Notes under the pieces: model-generated
Databases searched by the model: none
What the model saw: only the letters and a program-made list of their open reading frames with translations
What the model was told of the DNA's origin: nothing
Translations under genes and position numbers: made by a program
Sequence record: OM386653.1
DNA length: 64,000 bases
DNA from: Escherichia phage vB_EcoM_ESCO8
Direction: 5' to 3' (one strand)
Part shown: positions 9,086 to 64,000 of the stretch, in pieces
Numbering within the stretch: the stretch's first letter is position 1
Layout: each line of letters starts with the position of its first letter

Positions 9086-9167
9086 TGGCCGGGGTGACAG
9101 GATTCGAACCTGCATACTCCAATTACTCGGTTAACGCCTGATTAGAAGTCAGGTGAGATACACCCCG
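9086..9167 (-). tRNA. Atypical tRNA-like gene (UCU-type anticodon hairpin, no canonical D arm)
   Basis: Perfect 7-bp acceptor and canonical T-arm TTCGAAT; internal hairpin CCTGA-CTTCTAA-TCAGG. Confidence 0.35.
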
Positions 9168-9178
9168 TTTTCATAACG

Positions 9179-9208
9179 ACTATAACAAAAAAACTAAGTA
9201 AATGTCAA
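9179..9208 (-). promoter_or_regulatory. Sigma70-like promoter candidate for tRNA array (TTGACA-N18-TATAGT)
   Basis: Read on reverse complement; -10 ends ~12 nt upstream of the first tRNA-like gene. Confidence 0.35.
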
Positions 9209-9224
9209 GACATTTTTTAGGTGT

Positions 9225-9310
9225 TGGTGCAAGTGGAGGGATTCGAACCCTCAATCATTTAAGCGTTGCGTTTTAAGCACAATGTGTATCACCAATTCCA
9301 CCACACTTGC
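9225..9310 (-). tRNA. tRNA-Leu(UAA), type II
   Basis: Perfect acceptor, T-loop TTCGAAT, anticodon loop CTTAAAA. Confidence 0.6.
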
Positions 9311-9341
9311 ATATAGGAGATGCATAGCACCTCCTTTTAAA

Positions 9342-9417
9342 TGGTGGTTCCCCAGGGTTACAATCCCTGCCCTCGACACTTATGAGGTGTGCGCTCTCGT
9401 CAGTGAGCTATGGAACC
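9342..9417 (-). tRNA. tRNA with CAU anticodon, non-canonical T-loop
   Basis: D-arm GCTC/GAGC, anticodon loop CTCATAA, T-loop ATTGTAA. Confidence 0.45.
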
Positions 9418-57783: not shown

Positions 57784-58032
57784 TTACTCATACATTTGAT
57801 AAGATACATAACGATTGCAATCAAGTGCGAGAAACTTTTCAGCATTTCTTTGATGCTTGAACACAATACACTGTTCTTTTTTAGCTGCACTTTCACGAGC
57901 TTCTCTTGCCATATACTCACCTAAACGAACGATACCAGAGAATAACACGTATGCAAGAATAAGACAAACAGTGATTGCACAGAAAGTTTTAAACTTAACC
58001 ATTGTATTCCTCCATATCACGAATACGATCAA
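57784..58032 (-). CDS. Small membrane-anchored protein (KExCIxxKH family)
   Basis: ORF track; paralog of 53696..53920. Confidence 0.45.
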   Translation of the reverse strand: MIVFVIWRNTMVKFKTFCAITVCLILAYVLFSGIVRLGEYMAREARESAAKKEQCIVFKHQRNAEKFLALDCNRYVSYQMYE

Positions 58033-58363
58033 TCACCCATTGTACACGTTCTTTATTAAGGTGTGCAATGCCTAGCTCTGTTTCCGTAAAGTAGTGCGAG
58101 AAATCCGTATTAAACGGATGTAAATGGTTCAAACCCGCTTTCTTAAATTGTTCCTTCATTTCCTCTCGTACAGAGGATTGGAGCTTTGATACATTCTCAA
58201 CATCTTTTATCCAAGCAATATTGTATAAGAAGTCTACAAGACACGTGCAAAGACCATAATGCTTTTTGCTAAAGTTTGTATCTTCTTGTTCTAACCACCA
58301 TTCATAAAATTGTAGCAAATAGGGGCTGCTTTTCATGTTACACACTTTATTATTTTCTTGCAT
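57995..58363 (-). CDS. Paralog-family protein B
   Basis: ORF track; motifs LLQFYEWW, GLCTCL, LHPFN, RVQWVIDRI. Confidence 0.5.
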   Translation of the reverse strand: MQENNKVCNMKSSPYLLQFYEWWLEQEDTNFSKKHYGLCTCLVDFLYNIAWIKDVENVSKLQSSVREEMKEQFKKAGLNHLHPFNTDFSHYFTETELGIAHLNKERVQWVIDRIRDMEEYNG

Positions 58364-58372
58364 GGTTTCTCC

Positions 58373-58672
58373 TTAATGCCAATCTACGATCACTGAATCT
58401 ACAAAACCCTCTTTGGTGTTTAAAGCATACACCTTACTAAGCCCACGCTCTCGTAGTGTTTCCATAGCAAGATCAATCAAATCAACTTGTCGTTTCTTTG
58501 CTTGTTCATTTTTTGGATAGTCATCCAAACCGAAAACAGACGGTTTAAATGCTTTGGAGTATTTGCCAGTCTTAGCCTGATCATAACAGTCCTGAATAAT
58601 TTCCTCAATAGGAAACCATAAACCTTCTCCACTTTGCTTTGCAATACAACGCAGTTTTTCTGTAACAGTCAT
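58373..58672 (-). CDS. Hypothetical protein
   Basis: ORF track. Confidence 0.45.
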   Translation of the reverse strand: MTVTEKLRCIAKQSGEGLWFPIEEIIQDCYDQAKTGKYSKAFKPSVFGLDDYPKNEQAKKRQVDLIDLAMETLRERGLSKVYALNTKEGFVDSVIVDWH

Positions 58673-58881
58673 TCTTCCTCTCCTTTCAATTTACACTCAA
58701 AGATACCATTCTTAATGTTATCTGTCAAATAAAGACTATCTTCTATCTCTTCTTTTGTATACACATAAGCCTCCTTTTCCACGTCTGTCAGACCTTGCAT
58801 CGGAGCTAGTAGCCACCAGCTCCGCCAGTCAAACATAGGAGACTTATCAGATACACGAAGAATGTATCTGTCATTACACAT
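58669..58881 (-). CDS. Hypothetical protein
   Basis: ORF track. Confidence 0.45.
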   Translation of the reverse strand: MCNDRYILRVSDKSPMFDWRSWWLLAPMQGLTDVEKEAYVYTKEEIEDSLYLTDNIKNGIFECKLKGEEE

Positions 58882-58884
58882 ATA

Positions 58885-59337
58885 TTATACGATGTTCACA
58901 CTAATATCTGCAACACCAACAAGAGAATAGATTTCAACTACACTCTGTGTACGATCCAGCTTGTAACGTTTCGCCTCTTTTTCAACTTCCTCATGGGAGA
59001 TGGTTTCCATGATCGGAACTCCATCCACTACAAGCAGGTATTTCTCTTCGTGTTTACTTTTTGGTGCTTCCTCTAAGACTTCTACAAAATACTCAAACTC
59101 ACTTTTTGCAAGCAACGTGTAACACTGAAGAAAGTCTCCTTCATTTTGAGCGATAATTTCTTGTTCTCCTGCTAAGGATTGCAAAGCAGTGACACCATAC
59201 CAATCATCCACATCTAATACACGAAAATAGGAATCACCTAAAAAAGAAGCAATCCTACTATTGCACTCAGACACATTAGCAAACTTACGGATATAAGATG
59301 CGTTCTTAAAACGATACACTTTACCAATTTCAAACAT
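58885..59337 (-). CDS. Hypothetical protein
   Basis: ORF track. Confidence 0.5.
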   Translation of the reverse strand: MFEIGKVYRFKNASYIRKFANVSECNSRIASFLGDSYFRVLDVDDWYGVTALQSLAGEQEIIAQNEGDFLQCYTLLAKSEFEYFVEVLEEAPKSKHEEKYLLVVDGVPIMETISHEEVEKEAKRYKLDRTQSVVEIYSLVGVADISVNIV

Positions 59338-59539
59338 TACACAACTCCTTATTGTTCAAGGGTAAAAGGAATGATTTCACCATAGCTGTATTGCATGGCA
59401 TTCACTTCTGCTTCTGCACGTTGTGCTAGTTCTAGTGTTGCACAGATTTTGTAAGGTACAGTGCTGCATTGGCTCCAGCCTGGGGTATTCTTTGTTACTA
59501 AGTACACAGTAGTTTGTTTATCCATCTTCTTTTCCTCTT

Positions 59540-59797
59540 TTAAACAGTATATTCGTGTGGAAGGAAAACATAGTCTTCTCCTTCAACAACATCAACTACT
59601 TTCCACTTCCAGCCAGGTACTTGGCTCATTGTCTTGAATGACACATAAGCAACTCCGCTGTAAGCGATATCGGCATCTAATATAAGAGGGAAAGCAACGT
59701 GTGTCAACCCCAGATAACCACAATTATTTTCAATACACACCTGAATGCTTTTCATGTTATGCTCCATTAAAGACGGGGCGCGTAGCGTTACGTTCAT
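59540..59797 (-). CDS. Hypothetical protein
   Basis: ORF track. Confidence 0.4.
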   Translation of the reverse strand: MNVTLRAPSLMEHNMKSIQVCIENNCGYLGLTHVAFPLILDADIAYSGVAYVSFKTMSQVPGWKWKVVDVVEGEDYVFLPHEYTV

Positions 59798-60215
59798 CGT
59801 TCACTGTAATAAGGTTTTTCATAACCATAACACCCTGAATATAGCCTAGCCAACGATGGCGTTTGGTTTCAGACATACCATTACACCCATTCTGAATTTC
59901 ATTCAACATCCACAGTAAGTGGGAAACACCTGTTTCACTGGTATCTGGATCTTCTACAGAACTAAGAATAGTTTCATAGCGTTCACAAATTTCTGGGTAG
60001 AATTCATAATCCTGTTGTACATCTCGCATTTCTCGAATGAAGTGACGAGCAATAGGCTTCCCACGAAAATATTCATTGATGAAATCAATAACACACATCT
60101 CACTGCCTGTCACCACGGAAGGCGTTCCTATGTTAAATTGAACACTCACACCGCATTCTTTTACAAGATTATGTACACGCTCCGTGTTAGCAAGATACAA
60201 AGATACAGTTTTCAT
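59757..60215 (-). CDS. Hypothetical protein
   Basis: ORF track. Confidence 0.5.
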   Translation of the reverse strand: MKTVSLYLANTERVHNLVKECGVSVQFNIGTPSVVTGSEMCVIDFINEYFRGKPIARHFIREMRDVQQDYEFYPEICERYETILSSVEDPDTSETGVSHLLWMLNEIQNGCNGMSETKRHRWLGYIQGVMVMKNLITVNDERNATRPVFNGA

Positions 60216-60286
60216 TTACACCTCTCATTAGTAGTTTTGTTATGCGCGATATTGCATATTTTATGGAACACAGTGTACAGGCATTT

Positions 60287-60661
60287 CTATTCAATGCAAG
60301 CATTATTTGCATCTTCGATTCTGTCTTTCACCCATTGAAGACGTAACGTGTTGGTATGACACGCCAAGTCTATACACTCTGAAAGGTAATCCATGCAATC
60401 TGCATTGAACGGAAGATTGTAGTCCAGTCCTGCACATGTAAATTGTTTCCTCATTTCGTATTTCAAACTATCCAACAAACGATCACGCCATCTTTTATCT
60501 TCTTCTCTAGTTACCTCACCAACAAAATCATCTACATAATCTACCAGACAACCACATAAGCCACTCGTTGTGCGATTCATTGCAGGATGGTTGGCAATCC
60601 ATGCTTTATAGAATCGTATTAAAGCTGCACTACTCAACGGAATATTACTTTTCATGATCAC
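60287..60661 (-). CDS. Paralog-family protein C
   Basis: ORF track; motifs LIRFYKAW, GLCGCL, LPFN, RLQWVKDRI. Confidence 0.5.
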   Translation of the reverse strand: MIMKSNIPLSSAALIRFYKAWIANHPAMNRTTSGLCGCLVDYVDDFVGEVTREEDKRWRDRLLDSLKYEMRKQFTCAGLDYNLPFNADCMDYLSECIDLACHTNTLRLQWVKDRIEDANNACIE

Positions 60662-60827
60662 CTCCTAACTTAAGTATTCTACCTAGCAGATAAAAGAATG
60701 CCTGTATTGCACTAAGGAACATACACAAAATAATAAGAAGTCCGAAACCGACAAAACCTGCTTTTATCATTAACCAAACTATTCCAACCAATTCCCACAT
60801 TCTACACACCCTTACATGAATCGGCAA
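60645..60827 (-). CDS. Small membrane protein
   Basis: ORF track; hydrophobic; start uncertain. Confidence 0.35.
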   Translation of the reverse strand: MPIHVRVCRMWELVGIVWLMIKAGFVGFGLLIILCMFLSAIQAFFYLLGRILKLGGDHEK

Positions 60828-61218
60828 TACGATCTTTCACCCACTGCAATCTCCCTGGGTTCGTATGGCAAGAATGTTTCTTACCTTCATCTTCATAACA
60901 CAGAAGATCATCATTAAAGGGCAGGAAGGAGGATAGCCCAGCACACGTGAATTGCAATTTCATCTCTTCCAGCGTTTTGCTACGAACCATTTTGAAATGT
61001 TCTATATCTTCTTGCGTAGGCTTTTTCTTTGACATAGCGGATGCCAGATAATCCATAAGGCAAATACACAAACCAACATTCTCACGATGCATTGAGGAAT
61101 GATCTTCCATCCATGCTTTGTAGAATTCTAACAGCAGTGGACTGCTAAGAGGAACACACATATCAGACTCCTTTATAAGATTACGTTTCATGCCACACAT
61201 CATATAGCATCTTTTCAT
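60802..61218 (-). CDS. Paralog-family protein D
   Basis: ORF track; motifs LLEFYKAW, GLCICL, LPFN, RLQWVKDRI. Confidence 0.5.
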   Translation of the reverse strand: MKRCYMMCGMKRNLIKESDMCVPLSSPLLLEFYKAWMEDHSSMHRENVGLCICLMDYLASAMSKKKPTQEDIEHFKMVRSKTLEEMKLQFTCAGLSSFLPFNDDLLCYEDEGKKHSCHTNPGRLQWVKDRIADSCKGV

Positions 61219-62840
61219 CTGTTACAAGAACAGCAACATAGGAACATCATTAATGAAGGATTTAGTATAGGATTTCCCTATCAATTATTCTATATATACC
61301 TATTATTTTTAACACACCCCTTTGTACATAATATAGACAAATAAATATCTATGCCACAAAAATTTTCCGGTATACCCGATTTATTTCGACACACCCCCTT
61401 TTCATAAACGTAAAGTCAATAATATCAATAACTTGCCGCAAAATACTGCTCGCTTGCGAGAGGTGCTTAACGCGATTTTCAGCGCCCCCCGATTTCTGCC
61501 GACCGTCCCCCTCAAATATCAATGAGAATTATTATCATTTGCATTATCATTCAATGACTTATAAGACTTTTGATTATTTTCTGAGCAAGAAAGGCACTAC
61601 TCACAACAAAACAGATAAATTCTAAGTAAATCAATGGCTTGGCATTTCTAAACATCTATATACACCTTGCCAAATGAAATGATCTGGCGTGAAATAGTGC
61701 CACCCGTGGAAGATAGCTGATAATGATTCTCATTTGCATACTTTCTGTACTATAAAACCGACTAAAAATCAAGATAATTCTATTTTATTGCGCTTTTAAG
61801 AAAGTAGGCTCAACAAATGGTAAGTTATATTGCAACAAATAGGGATAGTTATGCCCGACAAATAACAACAATAGTATGAAAAATCATCTATTCGGATGTA
61901 AATAATTTTGCGCAATAGCACTGTGTTCCCATAGCGCCCCCTGGAGGGTGGCGCATTATGATCATCAATGTCATTATTCACCATGTTTATTATTGCATAG
62001 CTTATATTATAGCCAATGTTCTAAACATTAGCTAATAATAACGCACCGCAACAATGTAAGGGAATACAATATACCATGTATATTGTTGCGCTTGCAATTG
62101 TTGCAAGCTACATAAGCACAGATAATAACTATCGGTGATGGTTATTATGTGGGGTGTGTAGTTGCGTTATTATTAGCCGCCTATGTGTCCGGCATAGGCT
62201 GCTAATGATACGCTTGCGAATTATATTTCTTGTTATAGTTATTGTATGGAATGATTACTGTATGAAATGATTATTTAGGTAATAGATAGGAAGGTAAAGA
62301 TTAGATCATAAATAGATAGGATATTAATTATTTAGTAATGTTACTAACAATTTAATAGTTACTTTGTGCAACAATTCGATAGATTATAGTTATAGTTTTA
62401 AAGGTTAGATAGATTATATTTAGCTTAGTAATGATTTATATTGGTTATTGTTGTTTAATATAAGGTTATCAATGAGATAGTAACAGTAAGTTATAAATAA
62501 AGGTGAGATAATTAGTTTTAATTTAGTTAGATAACTTATTATTTTATAGGTTAGATGGTCATAAGTTAAGAATGATTATCATTATTGCATTATGCAGTTT
62601 ATTGCATAAATAATCAGCTATAAATAAGAATGATTATCATTTAAGAGGAAAGACAAGAAAAAGGCTGTTTTTTCCCGATAGTTACATTGAGAAATTAAAA
62701 ATAAGCGGTCTAAAACACGCTGTAAGCGCCTTATGATCTTCATGGTATGGTTGTTCATCTGCTCCTTGATTAGCTCGATACCGCGATCTATTCACTTTTT
62801 TCGGTGAACGTTTTTGATAGGTAAAAGCTATCATATTTAT

Positions 62841-62872
62841 TTAGGTAAAAAGAAAGGGCGCTTTGTGCGCCC
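62841..62872 (-). terminator. Rho-independent terminator on minus strand (GGGCGC-TTTGT-GCGCCC + T-run)
   Basis: GC stem then TTTCTTTTT on minus strand, immediately downstream of 62889..63272. Confidence 0.6.
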
Positions 62873-62888
62873 TGGTATGAAATGTTAT

Positions 62889-63272
62889 TTACTGATAAGC
62901 AGGATCGTTTGTTATATCAATCCAATGAGCTAAATTAATTTTATTTTTTGCTTTCATTTTCTCGATCAAACGTTCGGCTAATGTCTCGGAACGAATATAA
63001 ACATAATCGCTAAAATCTTGCCCCGTTTCTTCGTCGATCATTTCCCTGTATTCAACCTTGCCGATAAACGCATGATTCAGCGCATAAGTTTTACCCGTGT
63101 ACCAGTTGTGTAAATGAATCTCGCATTTATAATCGTCGCTATAACCTTCGGTTGTTCTAACTTCAACCAAGTCACCTTTAAACACTGATAAGCACCACAT
63201 AGGATCACGATCTACAGCGCCGTTAAAATCTTTACCGTTTACAGTCGCTGCCAGGTTGATGATATTGCTCAT
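62889..63272 (-). CDS. Hypothetical protein (GC-richer accessory gene)
   Basis: ORF track; composition differs from phage core. Confidence 0.45.
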   Translation of the reverse strand: MSNIINLAATVNGKDFNGAVDRDPMWCLSVFKGDLVEVRTTEGYSDDYKCEIHLHNWYTGKTYALNHAFIGKVEYREMIDEETGQDFSDYVYIRSETLAERLIEKMKAKNKINLAHWIDITNDPAYQ

Positions 63273-63347
63273 GGTGATTCCTCGTTTACCGTTTAAAATT
63301 GTTTGCCCTACACGATAACTATAAATTAACAGAGGCTATAAAGCAAG

Positions 63348-63656
63348 TTATTTTTCATAGAATTTTTCTACTGTGATATTCTTCCCAGTGGGATTAGCTA
63401 CTTTCAAAATTTTATCATGTACTGGACGCCCAAAAGAATAAGATCCGTATACAGTAAACCAATAATCACCGTCAGGCTGTACTATCACCGCTGCATAGGG
63501 TACGCCTTTTTCGTTATTGCTGACATAATAGATCACATTGCCGTTAATAGCCTCAGCGCGTTTAATTTGTTCGATCATGATATGATTCCTATATTGAGCG
63601 GGAAACCATTTCCCGCCTACGTGATAAATAATAATGTAAGCGTGATCCGGTGTCAA
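63348..63656 (-). CDS. Hypothetical protein (GC-richer accessory gene)
   Basis: ORF track. Confidence 0.45.
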   Translation of the reverse strand: MTPDHAYIIIYHVGGKWFPAQYRNHIMIEQIKRAEAINGNVIYYVSNNEKGVPYAAVIVQPDGDYWFTVYGSYSFGRPVHDKILKVANPTGKNITVEKFYEK

Positions 63657-63669
63657 TAGATAAAGTTAA

Positions 63670-63906
63670 TTATTTTGCATAATCAATAACAGCGCAGATT
63701 TTATCATTTACATCTTGTAAATCAAAGGCATAGGCGATCTTGCCTTGCAATTTTCCACGGGTGAAACAGATACGATAAACGCCGTTTTTACTATCCTCTT
63801 CTGATTTTAGTATTTTTGCAACCGTTGCAATTAACAGATCATCAGAGTAAGCGATAAAGCCACCACGTAAAATAGGTGATTTTTTGAGGATCATGACTTC
63901 TTTCAT
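63670..63906 (-). CDS. Hypothetical protein (GC-richer accessory gene)
   Basis: ORF track. Confidence 0.45.
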   Translation of the reverse strand: MKEVMILKKSPILRGGFIAYSDDLLIATVAKILKSEEDSKNGVYRICFTRGKLQGKIAYAFDLQDVNDKICAVIDYAK

Positions 63907-64000
63907 TTTCTTTTTCCTGTTTTCGTTTTGGGTATGTTCTACCCTCTAAAAACAATATTAAACTGTTGTGATTTATCGGTCAATAGATGAGATTGTAAAG

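Follow-up and report, generated by a model that had tools for sequence, protein, structure and literature searches.

The window analysed here is a stretch of 64,000 nucleotides (nt) of Escherichia phage vB_EcoM_ESCO8 (OM386653.1), and its gene-poor segment at positions 61,220-62,880 (the island) is, judging by homology to phages with mapped ends, very probably the genome-end or concatemer-junction region of a phi92-like phage, including its terminal repeat. Indeed, the RefSeq record of phi92 (NC_023693) carries an annotated direct terminal repeat (DTR) of 343 base pairs (bp) at both ends (DTR-L and DTR-R, nt 1-343 and 148270-148612), the two copies being identical, and this repeat maps exactly onto window positions 61468-61810, on the opposite strand and with 96.8% identity, the right end of phi92 being placed at position 61468 by BLAST. 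In phage BME3, a 342-bp DTR was called by PhageTerm, with two-fold coverage and read-start peaks reported at its boundaries (PMC12210895). The BME3 record starts with AACGCGATTTTC (AACGCG...) and its repeat ends in ...GTAGGCT, and the two boundaries in the window match these positions within 1 nt. In the other lineage, the WPEC1 record starts at AACGCGAATTTTC and the Schickermooser record ends in ...CGCGTTA. Altogether, the first boundary of the repeat (site A) coincides with a record end within 1 nt in four records from two genera (phi92, BME3, WPEC1 and Schickermooser) and the second one (site B) is common to both records with a mapped DTR (phi92 and BME3). Fixed, sequence-defined termini as in a T7-type genome end are found here by homology only; likewise, the presence of the repeat at both ends is shown in the ortholog phi92, the window holding one collapsed copy. 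Genomes of Stephanstirmvirinae end in DTRs (PMC12695924). Given the homology to mapped termini, the window would be a permuted assembly in which the repeat has collapsed to a single copy.

By its sequence, the window comes from a phi92-like myovirus of the genus Justusliebigvirus. The ~ 2.3 kb around the island match 85 phage records at 80-97% identity, with Justusliebigvirus as the best matching genus and EmilieFrey (Escherichia phage, Justusliebigvirus) as the top match at 95.7%. Given the homologies of the flanking genes, the gap lies between the last and the first gene in the phi92 numbering. With an identical internal order it is present in 139 phage records. In order to compare the gap between lineages, it was aligned from 13 genomes of four lineages and identity was then measured segment by segment. 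The gap is gene-free over ~ 1.6 kb in all aligned genomes (~ 2 kb in the Klebsiella phage), and a Vequintavirinae phage also displays a gene-free gap of ~ 1.6 kb with a homologous right-hand block. Between genera most of the gap is hardly alignable, the fast-evolving spacers showing 18-55% identity; identities of 66-86% across genera were obtained for both DTR boundaries, Fur-like box 1, the pair of boxes 3 and 4, a structured element, the right-hand block and a terminator. An earlier note, made from the sequence alone, had listed a packaging region among its readings of the island, which holds by homology to phi92, BME3, WPEC1 and Schickermooser since the island contains the DTR and both termini; the comparison with related phage genomes for conservation and termini that the note had proposed yielded the mapped termini as well as the conserved blocks. 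The identity of the island as terminal repeat and packaging region is already known from orthologs. The phi92 and BME3 records annotate the repeat alone, and the boundary motif, the boxes and the structured element are neither annotated nor discussed in the records and papers examined. With respect to these sources, what is new is the shared boundary motif, the positionally conserved boxes matching the Fur consensus and the covarying structured element.

Both edges of the repeat carry a common motif. Boundary A (61455-61478) reads GAGAGGTGCT|TAACGCGATTT, with the cut between 61467 and 61468, where the right ends of phi92 and Schickermooser and the record starts of BME3 and WPEC1 map within 1 nt; its AACGCGA is invariant in all lineages. 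Boundary B (61797-61818) reads AAGAAAGTAGGCT|CAACAAAT, with the cut between 61810 and 61811, and shows 73-77% identity across genera. In four lineages the two boundaries share the motif AGA(A)G(G)TGCT|YAAC, in direct orientation and with the mapped end at the same position. Thus boundaries A and B read GAGAGGTGCT|TAAC and AAAGTAGGCT|CAAC in Justusliebigvirus, AGAAGTGCT|TAAC and AGAAGATGCT|CAAC in tuntematon, and GAGAGGTGCT|TAAC and GAGAAGGTGCT|CAAC in Klebsiella phage phi1_175008. Furthermore, a sequence resembling boundary A, TACCGCGATCT, recurs at 62779-62789 inside the right-hand block, and exact copies of TAMCGCGATYT are found in the window at boundary A and at 62779 only. Outside boundary B lies a variable spacer (61811-62027; 18-29% identity across genera). 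It opens with CAACAAATRG repeats at 61811 and 61833, present in 1-4 copies in relatives, and contains a GC-rich hairpin at 61934-61954. With mismatches allowed, neither CAACAAATRG nor ACACACCCCYTTT is over-represented window-wide, so that their significance rests on position and conservation only. At ~ 61920 (between 61919 and 61921) the window lacks a segment of ~ 37 bp, TTAATATTTTTCTTGACAAGAAAGATTTCTTTG, which contains TTGACA and the palindrome TTTCTTG-A-CAAGAAA and is present in every other aligned Justusliebigvirus; given its absence here, this segment is dispensable.

The second component is a set of palindromic boxes that closely resemble operators of the host regulator Fur. The earlier note had described at least four copies of a GATAATGATnnTCATT-type motif, and these were recovered at 61518-61548, 61719-61737, 62568-62586 and 62626-62644. 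Box array 1 (61518-61548) consists of 3-4 head-to-tail ATTATC-type hexamers, its best 19-mer having 4 mismatches to the consensus (2 in phiWec190, i.e. 17/19). Box 2 (61719-61737) has 3 mismatches, and 2 (17/19) in most Justusliebigvirus. Boxes 3 and 4 (62568-62586 and 62626-62644), 58 bp apart, flank the palindrome TTATGCA (62590-62596)...TGCATAA (62603-62609), and a weak fifth site lies in the variable spacer at 61954-61978. Boxes 1 and 2 are inside the DTR, 50-80 bp and 73-91 bp from its two boundaries. The 13-bp palindromic core AATGATWATCATT, with at most 1 mismatch, occurs 4 times in 64 kb, always in the island, where 0.02 occurrences are expected from 1000 dinucleotide shuffles of the region. 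Similarly, the 19-bp Fur consensus with at most 5 mismatches is found 8 times in the island against 0.32 expected, and none of the 1000 shuffles reached 8; the island, which makes up 2.6% of the window length, holds 8 of its 22 matches. The motif counts thus lie far above the shuffled background; a score below such a background was part of what the earlier note had named as refuting. As a yardstick for these matches, the best ones were determined in the enterobactin cluster of E. coli, in three divergent promoter regions that are classic Fur targets (fepA-fes, fepD-entS and fepB-entC). The phage boxes have 3, 3, 4 and 5 mismatches (2 in relatives) and the E. coli regions 3-6, so that the matches are comparable with those of genuine Fur operators. 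Moreover, the positions of the boxes are kept across lineages though their flanks diverge. Between genera, box 1 is 76-86% identical, compared to 31-46% in the DTR spacer next to it, and a pair of boxes 60 bp apart is retained in the Vequintavirinae phage TH18. By sequence, the boxes qualify as Fur operators. They share with enterobacterial Fur boxes (GATAATGATAATCATTATC) an identical 13-bp core, 14-17 matches out of 19 and head-to-tail hexamer arrays, but differ from them in that they are located in or beside the terminal repeat of a virulent phage and mostly lack a convincing promoter.

The third component is a structured element of ~ 170 nt at 62031-62199, assigned to the + strand and made of five helices. 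P1 (62031-62045 / 62163-62177) is a perfect 15-bp inverted repeat enclosing three hairpin domains, which are formed by P2 (62047-62052 / 62085-62090), P3 (62091-62096 / 62102-62107) and P4a with P4 (62108-62113 / 62156-62161 and 62122-62133 / 62137-62148). P5 (62179-62186 / 62192-62199) lies downstream of P1 and is followed by the invariant TGCTAATGAT. P3 is the perfect hairpin GCTTGCAA-TTG-TTGCAAGC that had been noticed earlier and that lies at 62090-62108, 4 nt away from the position then given, while the longer imperfect palindrome reported with it exists as well but is best placed at 62179-62199 (GCCTATGt-gtccg-gCATAGGC). The predicted folding energy is -81.4 kcal/mol for the + strand (z = -8.4) and -64.3 kcal/mol for the − strand. 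Among 16 distinct homologs, 96.6% of the cells for 54 pairs are canonical compared to at most 55% with slid partners, and 15 pairs display compensated changes on both sides. For the percentage paired, the number of both-sides changes and the covariation score, none of 500 shuffles reached the observed values; the number of further pair types in the element is as in shuffles (236/500). The homologs contain five mutually compensated versions of the outer stem alone. Furthermore, G.U cells, which are valid on the + strand only, number 46 and A.C cells 6; given this excess, the folded strand is antisense to all neighbouring genes. Compensatory changes supporting a conserved fold and a strand asymmetry, both expected of a structured RNA, were therefore found, although the same G.U asymmetry would also be expected of single-stranded DNA. 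Based on these data, we lean slightly towards the element acting as an RNA rather than as single-stranded DNA. The earlier proposal of a non-coding RNA locus thus survives for this one component, as a candidate RNA with strong covariation and + strand G.U pairs, and not for the island as a whole.

A covariance model of the element scored 150-178 bits in every core Stephanstirmvirinae tested; the same model did not find it in Klebsiella phage FBKp34 and gave only a marginal hit in the Vequintavirinae phage TH18. An Rfam scan of 58000-64000 on both strands (E ≤ 1) gave no match. Two pattern scans of IMG/VR returned the same four contigs, and a pattern scan of bacterial and archaeal genomes returned four hits, approximately the chance number by our own estimate, none of them matching the covariance model. 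Neither a convincing conserved promoter directly upstream of the element nor a U-run after P5 was found. The tip of P4 (62130-62140) is inverted between lineages, reading ATCGGTGAT here and ATCACCGAT in arall and Phapecoctavirus; the two are exact reverse complements, which is the signature of a template-switch inversion at a DNA hairpin.

To the right of the element, the sequence becomes strongly depleted of C. The block at 62240-62560 contains 37% A, 4% C, 18% G and 41% T on its + strand, together with short TAGATAG and TTAGTAATG repeats, and is the most C-depleted 300-nt stretch of the window (11-13 C, compared to a mean of ~ 57 per 320 nt); its 13 C in 321 nt are the extreme of the window. 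In other genera its sequence differs (30-38% identity) while the G>C skew and the T-richness are kept. The change in composition that the earlier note had remarked on is therefore real, and strongest in this block. Beyond boxes 3 and 4, the block at 62650-62850 is conserved in primary sequence and includes the TACCGCGATCT at 62779-62789 already described. It contains no conserved open reading frame (ORF). A search for RNA structure in 62540-62890 gave no covariation (term +1.5), and the right-hand block is therefore read as conserved at the DNA level.

The description of the island as ORF-poor was confirmed. Its largest ORFs have 57 and 62 amino acids, and the five longest have no PHROG match whereas both flanking genes do. 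Two candidate ORFs of 46 and 50 amino acids near 62700 have lost their start or gained in-frame stops in Phapecoctavirus. A protein-coding reading was rejected on these grounds. A scan for tRNA and tmRNA genes found nothing within the island, and a tandem-repeat finder found three short low-score arrays only. In the records of VivaForever, KMB37, Tr1, FKP3 and WPEC1, ~ 6-10 "hypothetical proteins" of ~ 30-100 amino acids (mostly 30-60) are annotated in the gap, and curated records annotate zero genes inside it; the annotated proteins are very likely the result of over-calling by gene finders in non-coding DNA.

These components suggest how the genome ends could be produced. The terminase would recognise the boundary motif at both edges of the single junction copy and nick or cut there, and the DTR would then be duplicated by 3' extension from staggered nicks, as in T7-type short-DTR phages. 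In the virion, the DNA would carry the DTR at both ends. The sequence to the left of the DTR (61467 down to 61219) would form the leader of the left-end early genes, and the ~ 1.07 kb to its right (61811-62880) would be the non-coding right end, located past the terminator of the last gene. Divergent promoters in the DTR might drive transcription leftward into the early genes and rightward, from the -35 lying in box 2, across boundary B into the structured element; the rightward one would yield an antisense non-coding RNA. Host Fur could bind the Fur-like boxes, which would then serve as operators or else form an array with an architectural or titrating role, and the AT-rich C-poor block may insulate the genome end from read-through or act as an unwinding element.

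Several points weigh against this reading of the island and its parts. The DTR assignment relies here on the identity to phi92, and the window holds one repeat copy; a 1-nt indel separates the A and B motifs of Justusliebigvirus. With z = -5.6, the − strand of the element is also predicted to fold well, and the element could work as single-stranded DNA instead of RNA. A sigma70 scan of the region returned 16 promoter-like sites where 12.9 were expected, which is no enrichment, and the promoters named here were all picked by eye and match the consensus weakly to moderately. Moreover, according to the host fields of their records, laboratory E. coli strains routinely serve for the isolation and propagation of phi92-like phages. 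The propagation medium is presumably ordinary and iron-replete, with Fur active, and under that assumption Fur would not be a tight repressor of essential early genes, since the phages propagate on such cells. More likely roles for the boxes are the control of a non-essential transcript, an architectural function at the ends or the titration of Fur. The earlier suggestion of an iron-regulated promoter region is therefore plausible only: the boxes are significant, positionally conserved and operator-like, but promoter-like sites are not enriched.

Whether host Fur binds the boxes is, on sequence, close to an even question, with the balance slightly towards no. Alternatively, packaging or end recognition may rely on the boxes as sites of a protein of the phage itself, possibly its small terminase subunit or an early regulator like the phi92 gp005-type "predicted transcription regulator". 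The likeness to Fur boxes would then be convergent, both kinds of sites being AT-rich 6-1-6 palindromes. The position of boxes 1 and 2 near the DTR boundaries and of the pair in the right-end region, where packaging signals are expected, speaks for such a protein, as do the retention of boxes in phages of Klebsiella and Citrobacter and in Vequintavirinae and the lack of a good overlapping promoter at most of them. However, the central 13 bp are identical to the core of the Fur consensus, 19-mers of several relatives match it at 17/19, the head-to-tail hexamers of box 1 are typical of Fur operators, and all the hosts are Enterobacteriaceae, which we expect to have one Fur consensus. We consider a phage protein a possibility to be taken seriously, although we do not favour it. 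A bolder proposal concerns the host protein: a virulent coliphage lineage would have kept an array of high-affinity host Fur boxes in and beside its terminal repeat across at least two subfamilies and would use host Fur. Fur could then be an iron-sensing switch for a DTR promoter driving the ~ 170-nt structured antisense RNA, or else be architectural or titrated, since the ~ 7 boxes of each virion genome, once multiplied by replication, could withdraw Fur from the host iron regulon. We regard this proposal as unlikely; if it holds, these boxes and the common cut-site motif would amount to a genome-end control module of a new type. In the library searched, no paper on transcription, Fur or the gap in Stephanstirmvirinae was found.

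Other explanations bear on the right-hand part of the island. The element, the C-poor block and the palindromic boxes could form a replication origin, with the boxes as iterons, the 78% A+T block as unwinding element and the folded + strand as a primer RNA or R-loop or as a single-strand initiation signal. It would agree with this that the most AT-rich and most strand-skewed stretch of the window lies beside repeated palindromes, that the multi-hairpin element folds on one strand and that a G>C skew follows downstream of it on the same strand. Conversely, the boxes, 58 and 195 bp apart, are few and form no tight iteron array, the AT-rich block lacks sequence conservation, none of the adjacent genes encodes an initiator and the G residues are, in our reading, dispersed, unlike the clusters of known R-loop origins; furthermore, the turning points of the cumulative GC skew, at ~ 13 kb and ~ 49 kb, follow gene orientation and do not fall on the island. 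An origin at this place therefore appears improbable to us. Slightly less improbable, and still doubtful, is that the C-poor block provides a G-depleted unstructured − strand tract that loads Rho and backs up the terminator at 62855-62873, late transcription being thereby kept out of the early genes across the concatemer junction, with the downstream hairpins as pause sites. Indeed, on the − strand (sense for every flanking gene), C/G reaches 58/13 = 4.5 within 321 nt, a value not exceeded elsewhere in the window. The block follows immediately after the conserved terminator, and composition rather than sequence has been kept, as expected of a rut site. Nevertheless, C on the − strand amounts merely to 18%, the genome average, so that the tract is G-poor and not C-rich, and the G.U pattern puts the folding of the hairpin cluster on the other strand. 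Finally, the island might be horizontally acquired or junk DNA whose motifs are by-products of an AT-rich composition, given its G+C of 0.30-0.36 compared to ~ 0.37 and its lack of genes. We hold this to be almost certainly wrong: the order of elements is found in the 139 records, a Vequintavirinae phage has an equally long gap whose right-hand block is homologous, discrete blocks are under purifying selection, motif counts are far beyond dinucleotide-preserving shuffles and compensatory substitutions are present. Horizontal acquisition, to which the change in composition had been taken to hint, was thus rejected on the conservation of the gap and its internal order across relatives.

As a genome-end region, the island can be compared with well-studied systems. 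It resembles the short DTRs and concatemer junctions of T7 and T3 in having a non-coding repeat of a few hundred bp at a fixed position with defined ends, which carries promoters (candidate ones in the present case) and is flanked by short repeats. It differs from them in belonging to a 146-kb myovirus, in having one ~ 14-bp motif at both boundaries, cut at the same position, in the Fur-consensus palindromes within the repeat and in the ~ 1 kb of conserved non-coding DNA adjoining the right end. We know of no junction driven by a phage RNA polymerase in this 146-kb phage. The cos region of lambda (cosN, cosB with its R sites and the IHF site I1, IHF being integration host factor) combines a cut site, repeated protein-binding elements and a site for a host architectural protein; it is alike as a packaging region that brings together such element types, but it has cohesive ends instead of repeats and no sequence similarity to the island. 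ColE1 RNA II, the T4 oriF and oriG R-loops and G4-type single-strand initiation signals are structured origin or primer RNAs or initiation signals; they too combine a multi-hairpin element on one strand with an easily melted region, but have no sequence or Rfam relationship to the present element. The repeats DTR-L and DTR-R of phi92 and the BME3 repeat are orthologous to the one in the window and have equal boundaries. According to the general DTR model, the single junction copy is duplicated by staggered nicks and 3' extension (PMC5557969).

Phages related to phi92 and phAPEC8 are widely isolated and present in therapy collections, and many GenBank records either list 8-11 spurious "hypothetical proteins" in the gap or open their genome at arbitrary points. 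The recognition of the gap as a genome end with a conserved cut-site motif would allow these genomes to be oriented and annotated consistently. Furthermore, the boundary motif is a concrete candidate for the terminase substrate, the Fur-consensus boxes offer a testable link between host iron status and a virulent phage, and the structured element, a possible new RNA family or else a signal in single-stranded DNA, covaries strongly enough to be worth experiments.

Every gene flanking the island is on the − strand. On its left, the unique leader of the left end (61219-61467, − strand) separates the DTR from the first of several small early-type ORFs (60802-61218, − strand); it is conserved in Justusliebigvirus and shows 45-57% identity to other genera. 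The direct repeats ACACACCCC(C)TTT described in the earlier note were found in this leader at 61312-61324 and 61389-61401 and read AAAGGGG(G)TGTGT on the − strand. With mismatches allowed they are not over-represented window-wide, yet they are conserved in relatives. Each − strand copy is preceded by a weak sigma70-like -35/-10, e.g. GTGGCA (61357-61352)-18-TATTAT (61333-61328), and the repeats may mark two candidate tandem early promoters. DTR boundary A is straddled, within ~ 190 bp, by four C4-C6 runs of the + strand, which are G-runs on the − strand (61486-61507, 61394-61398 and 61317-61320); these runs are not conserved in Phapecoctavirus.

Inside the DTR, a candidate sigma70 promoter on the − strand (61645-61673, TTGGCA-17-TAGAAA) points toward the early genes; it was picked by eye and is missing from the list of the scan. 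Its counterparts are TTGACA-17-TAGACT in phi92 and TTGGCA-17-TATTAA in Klebsiella phage phi1_175008. Beside it, AATCAATGGCTTG (61629-61641, + strand) is nearly invariant across genera and fits the IHF consensus, which we take to be WATCAANNNNTTR, making it a candidate site. A candidate + strand promoter, TTCTCA (61727-61732)-18-TATAAA (61751-61756), has its -35, TTATCA in relatives, inside box 2, and a weak TTGCAT-16-TAAATA adjoins box 3; all promoter candidates near the boxes are weak.

On the right of the island, the intrinsic terminator at 62855-62873 (− strand) ends the operon of the phi92 gp248 homolog (62889-63272, − strand; Gp30.8-like, PHROG 1507). It is the only one found by the terminator scan, its stem is invariant and it is annotated as a terminator in PATM and Paula. 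On the left, a pair of paralogous small ORFs on the − strand (60287-60661 and 60802-61218, PHROG 2510) adjoins the island; both contain ...FYKAW...H...M... and C-terminal LQWVKDRI motifs. Phi92 has neither paralog, and its leader runs straight into gp001 (window 59757-60215).

Elsewhere in the window, the cumulative GC skew turns sharply at ~ 13000 and ~ 49000, where blocks of − and + strand genes switch, and a cluster of 16 tRNA genes is found at 6630-9417 on the − strand, including three tRNA-Met, two tRNA-Leu and two tRNA-Ser. Among the database records, MG065639, MG065645, MG065656 and MG065689 ("Campylobacter phage", host C. jejuni) are 96% identical to this E. coli phage over the region and are probably mislabelled or contaminant genomes.

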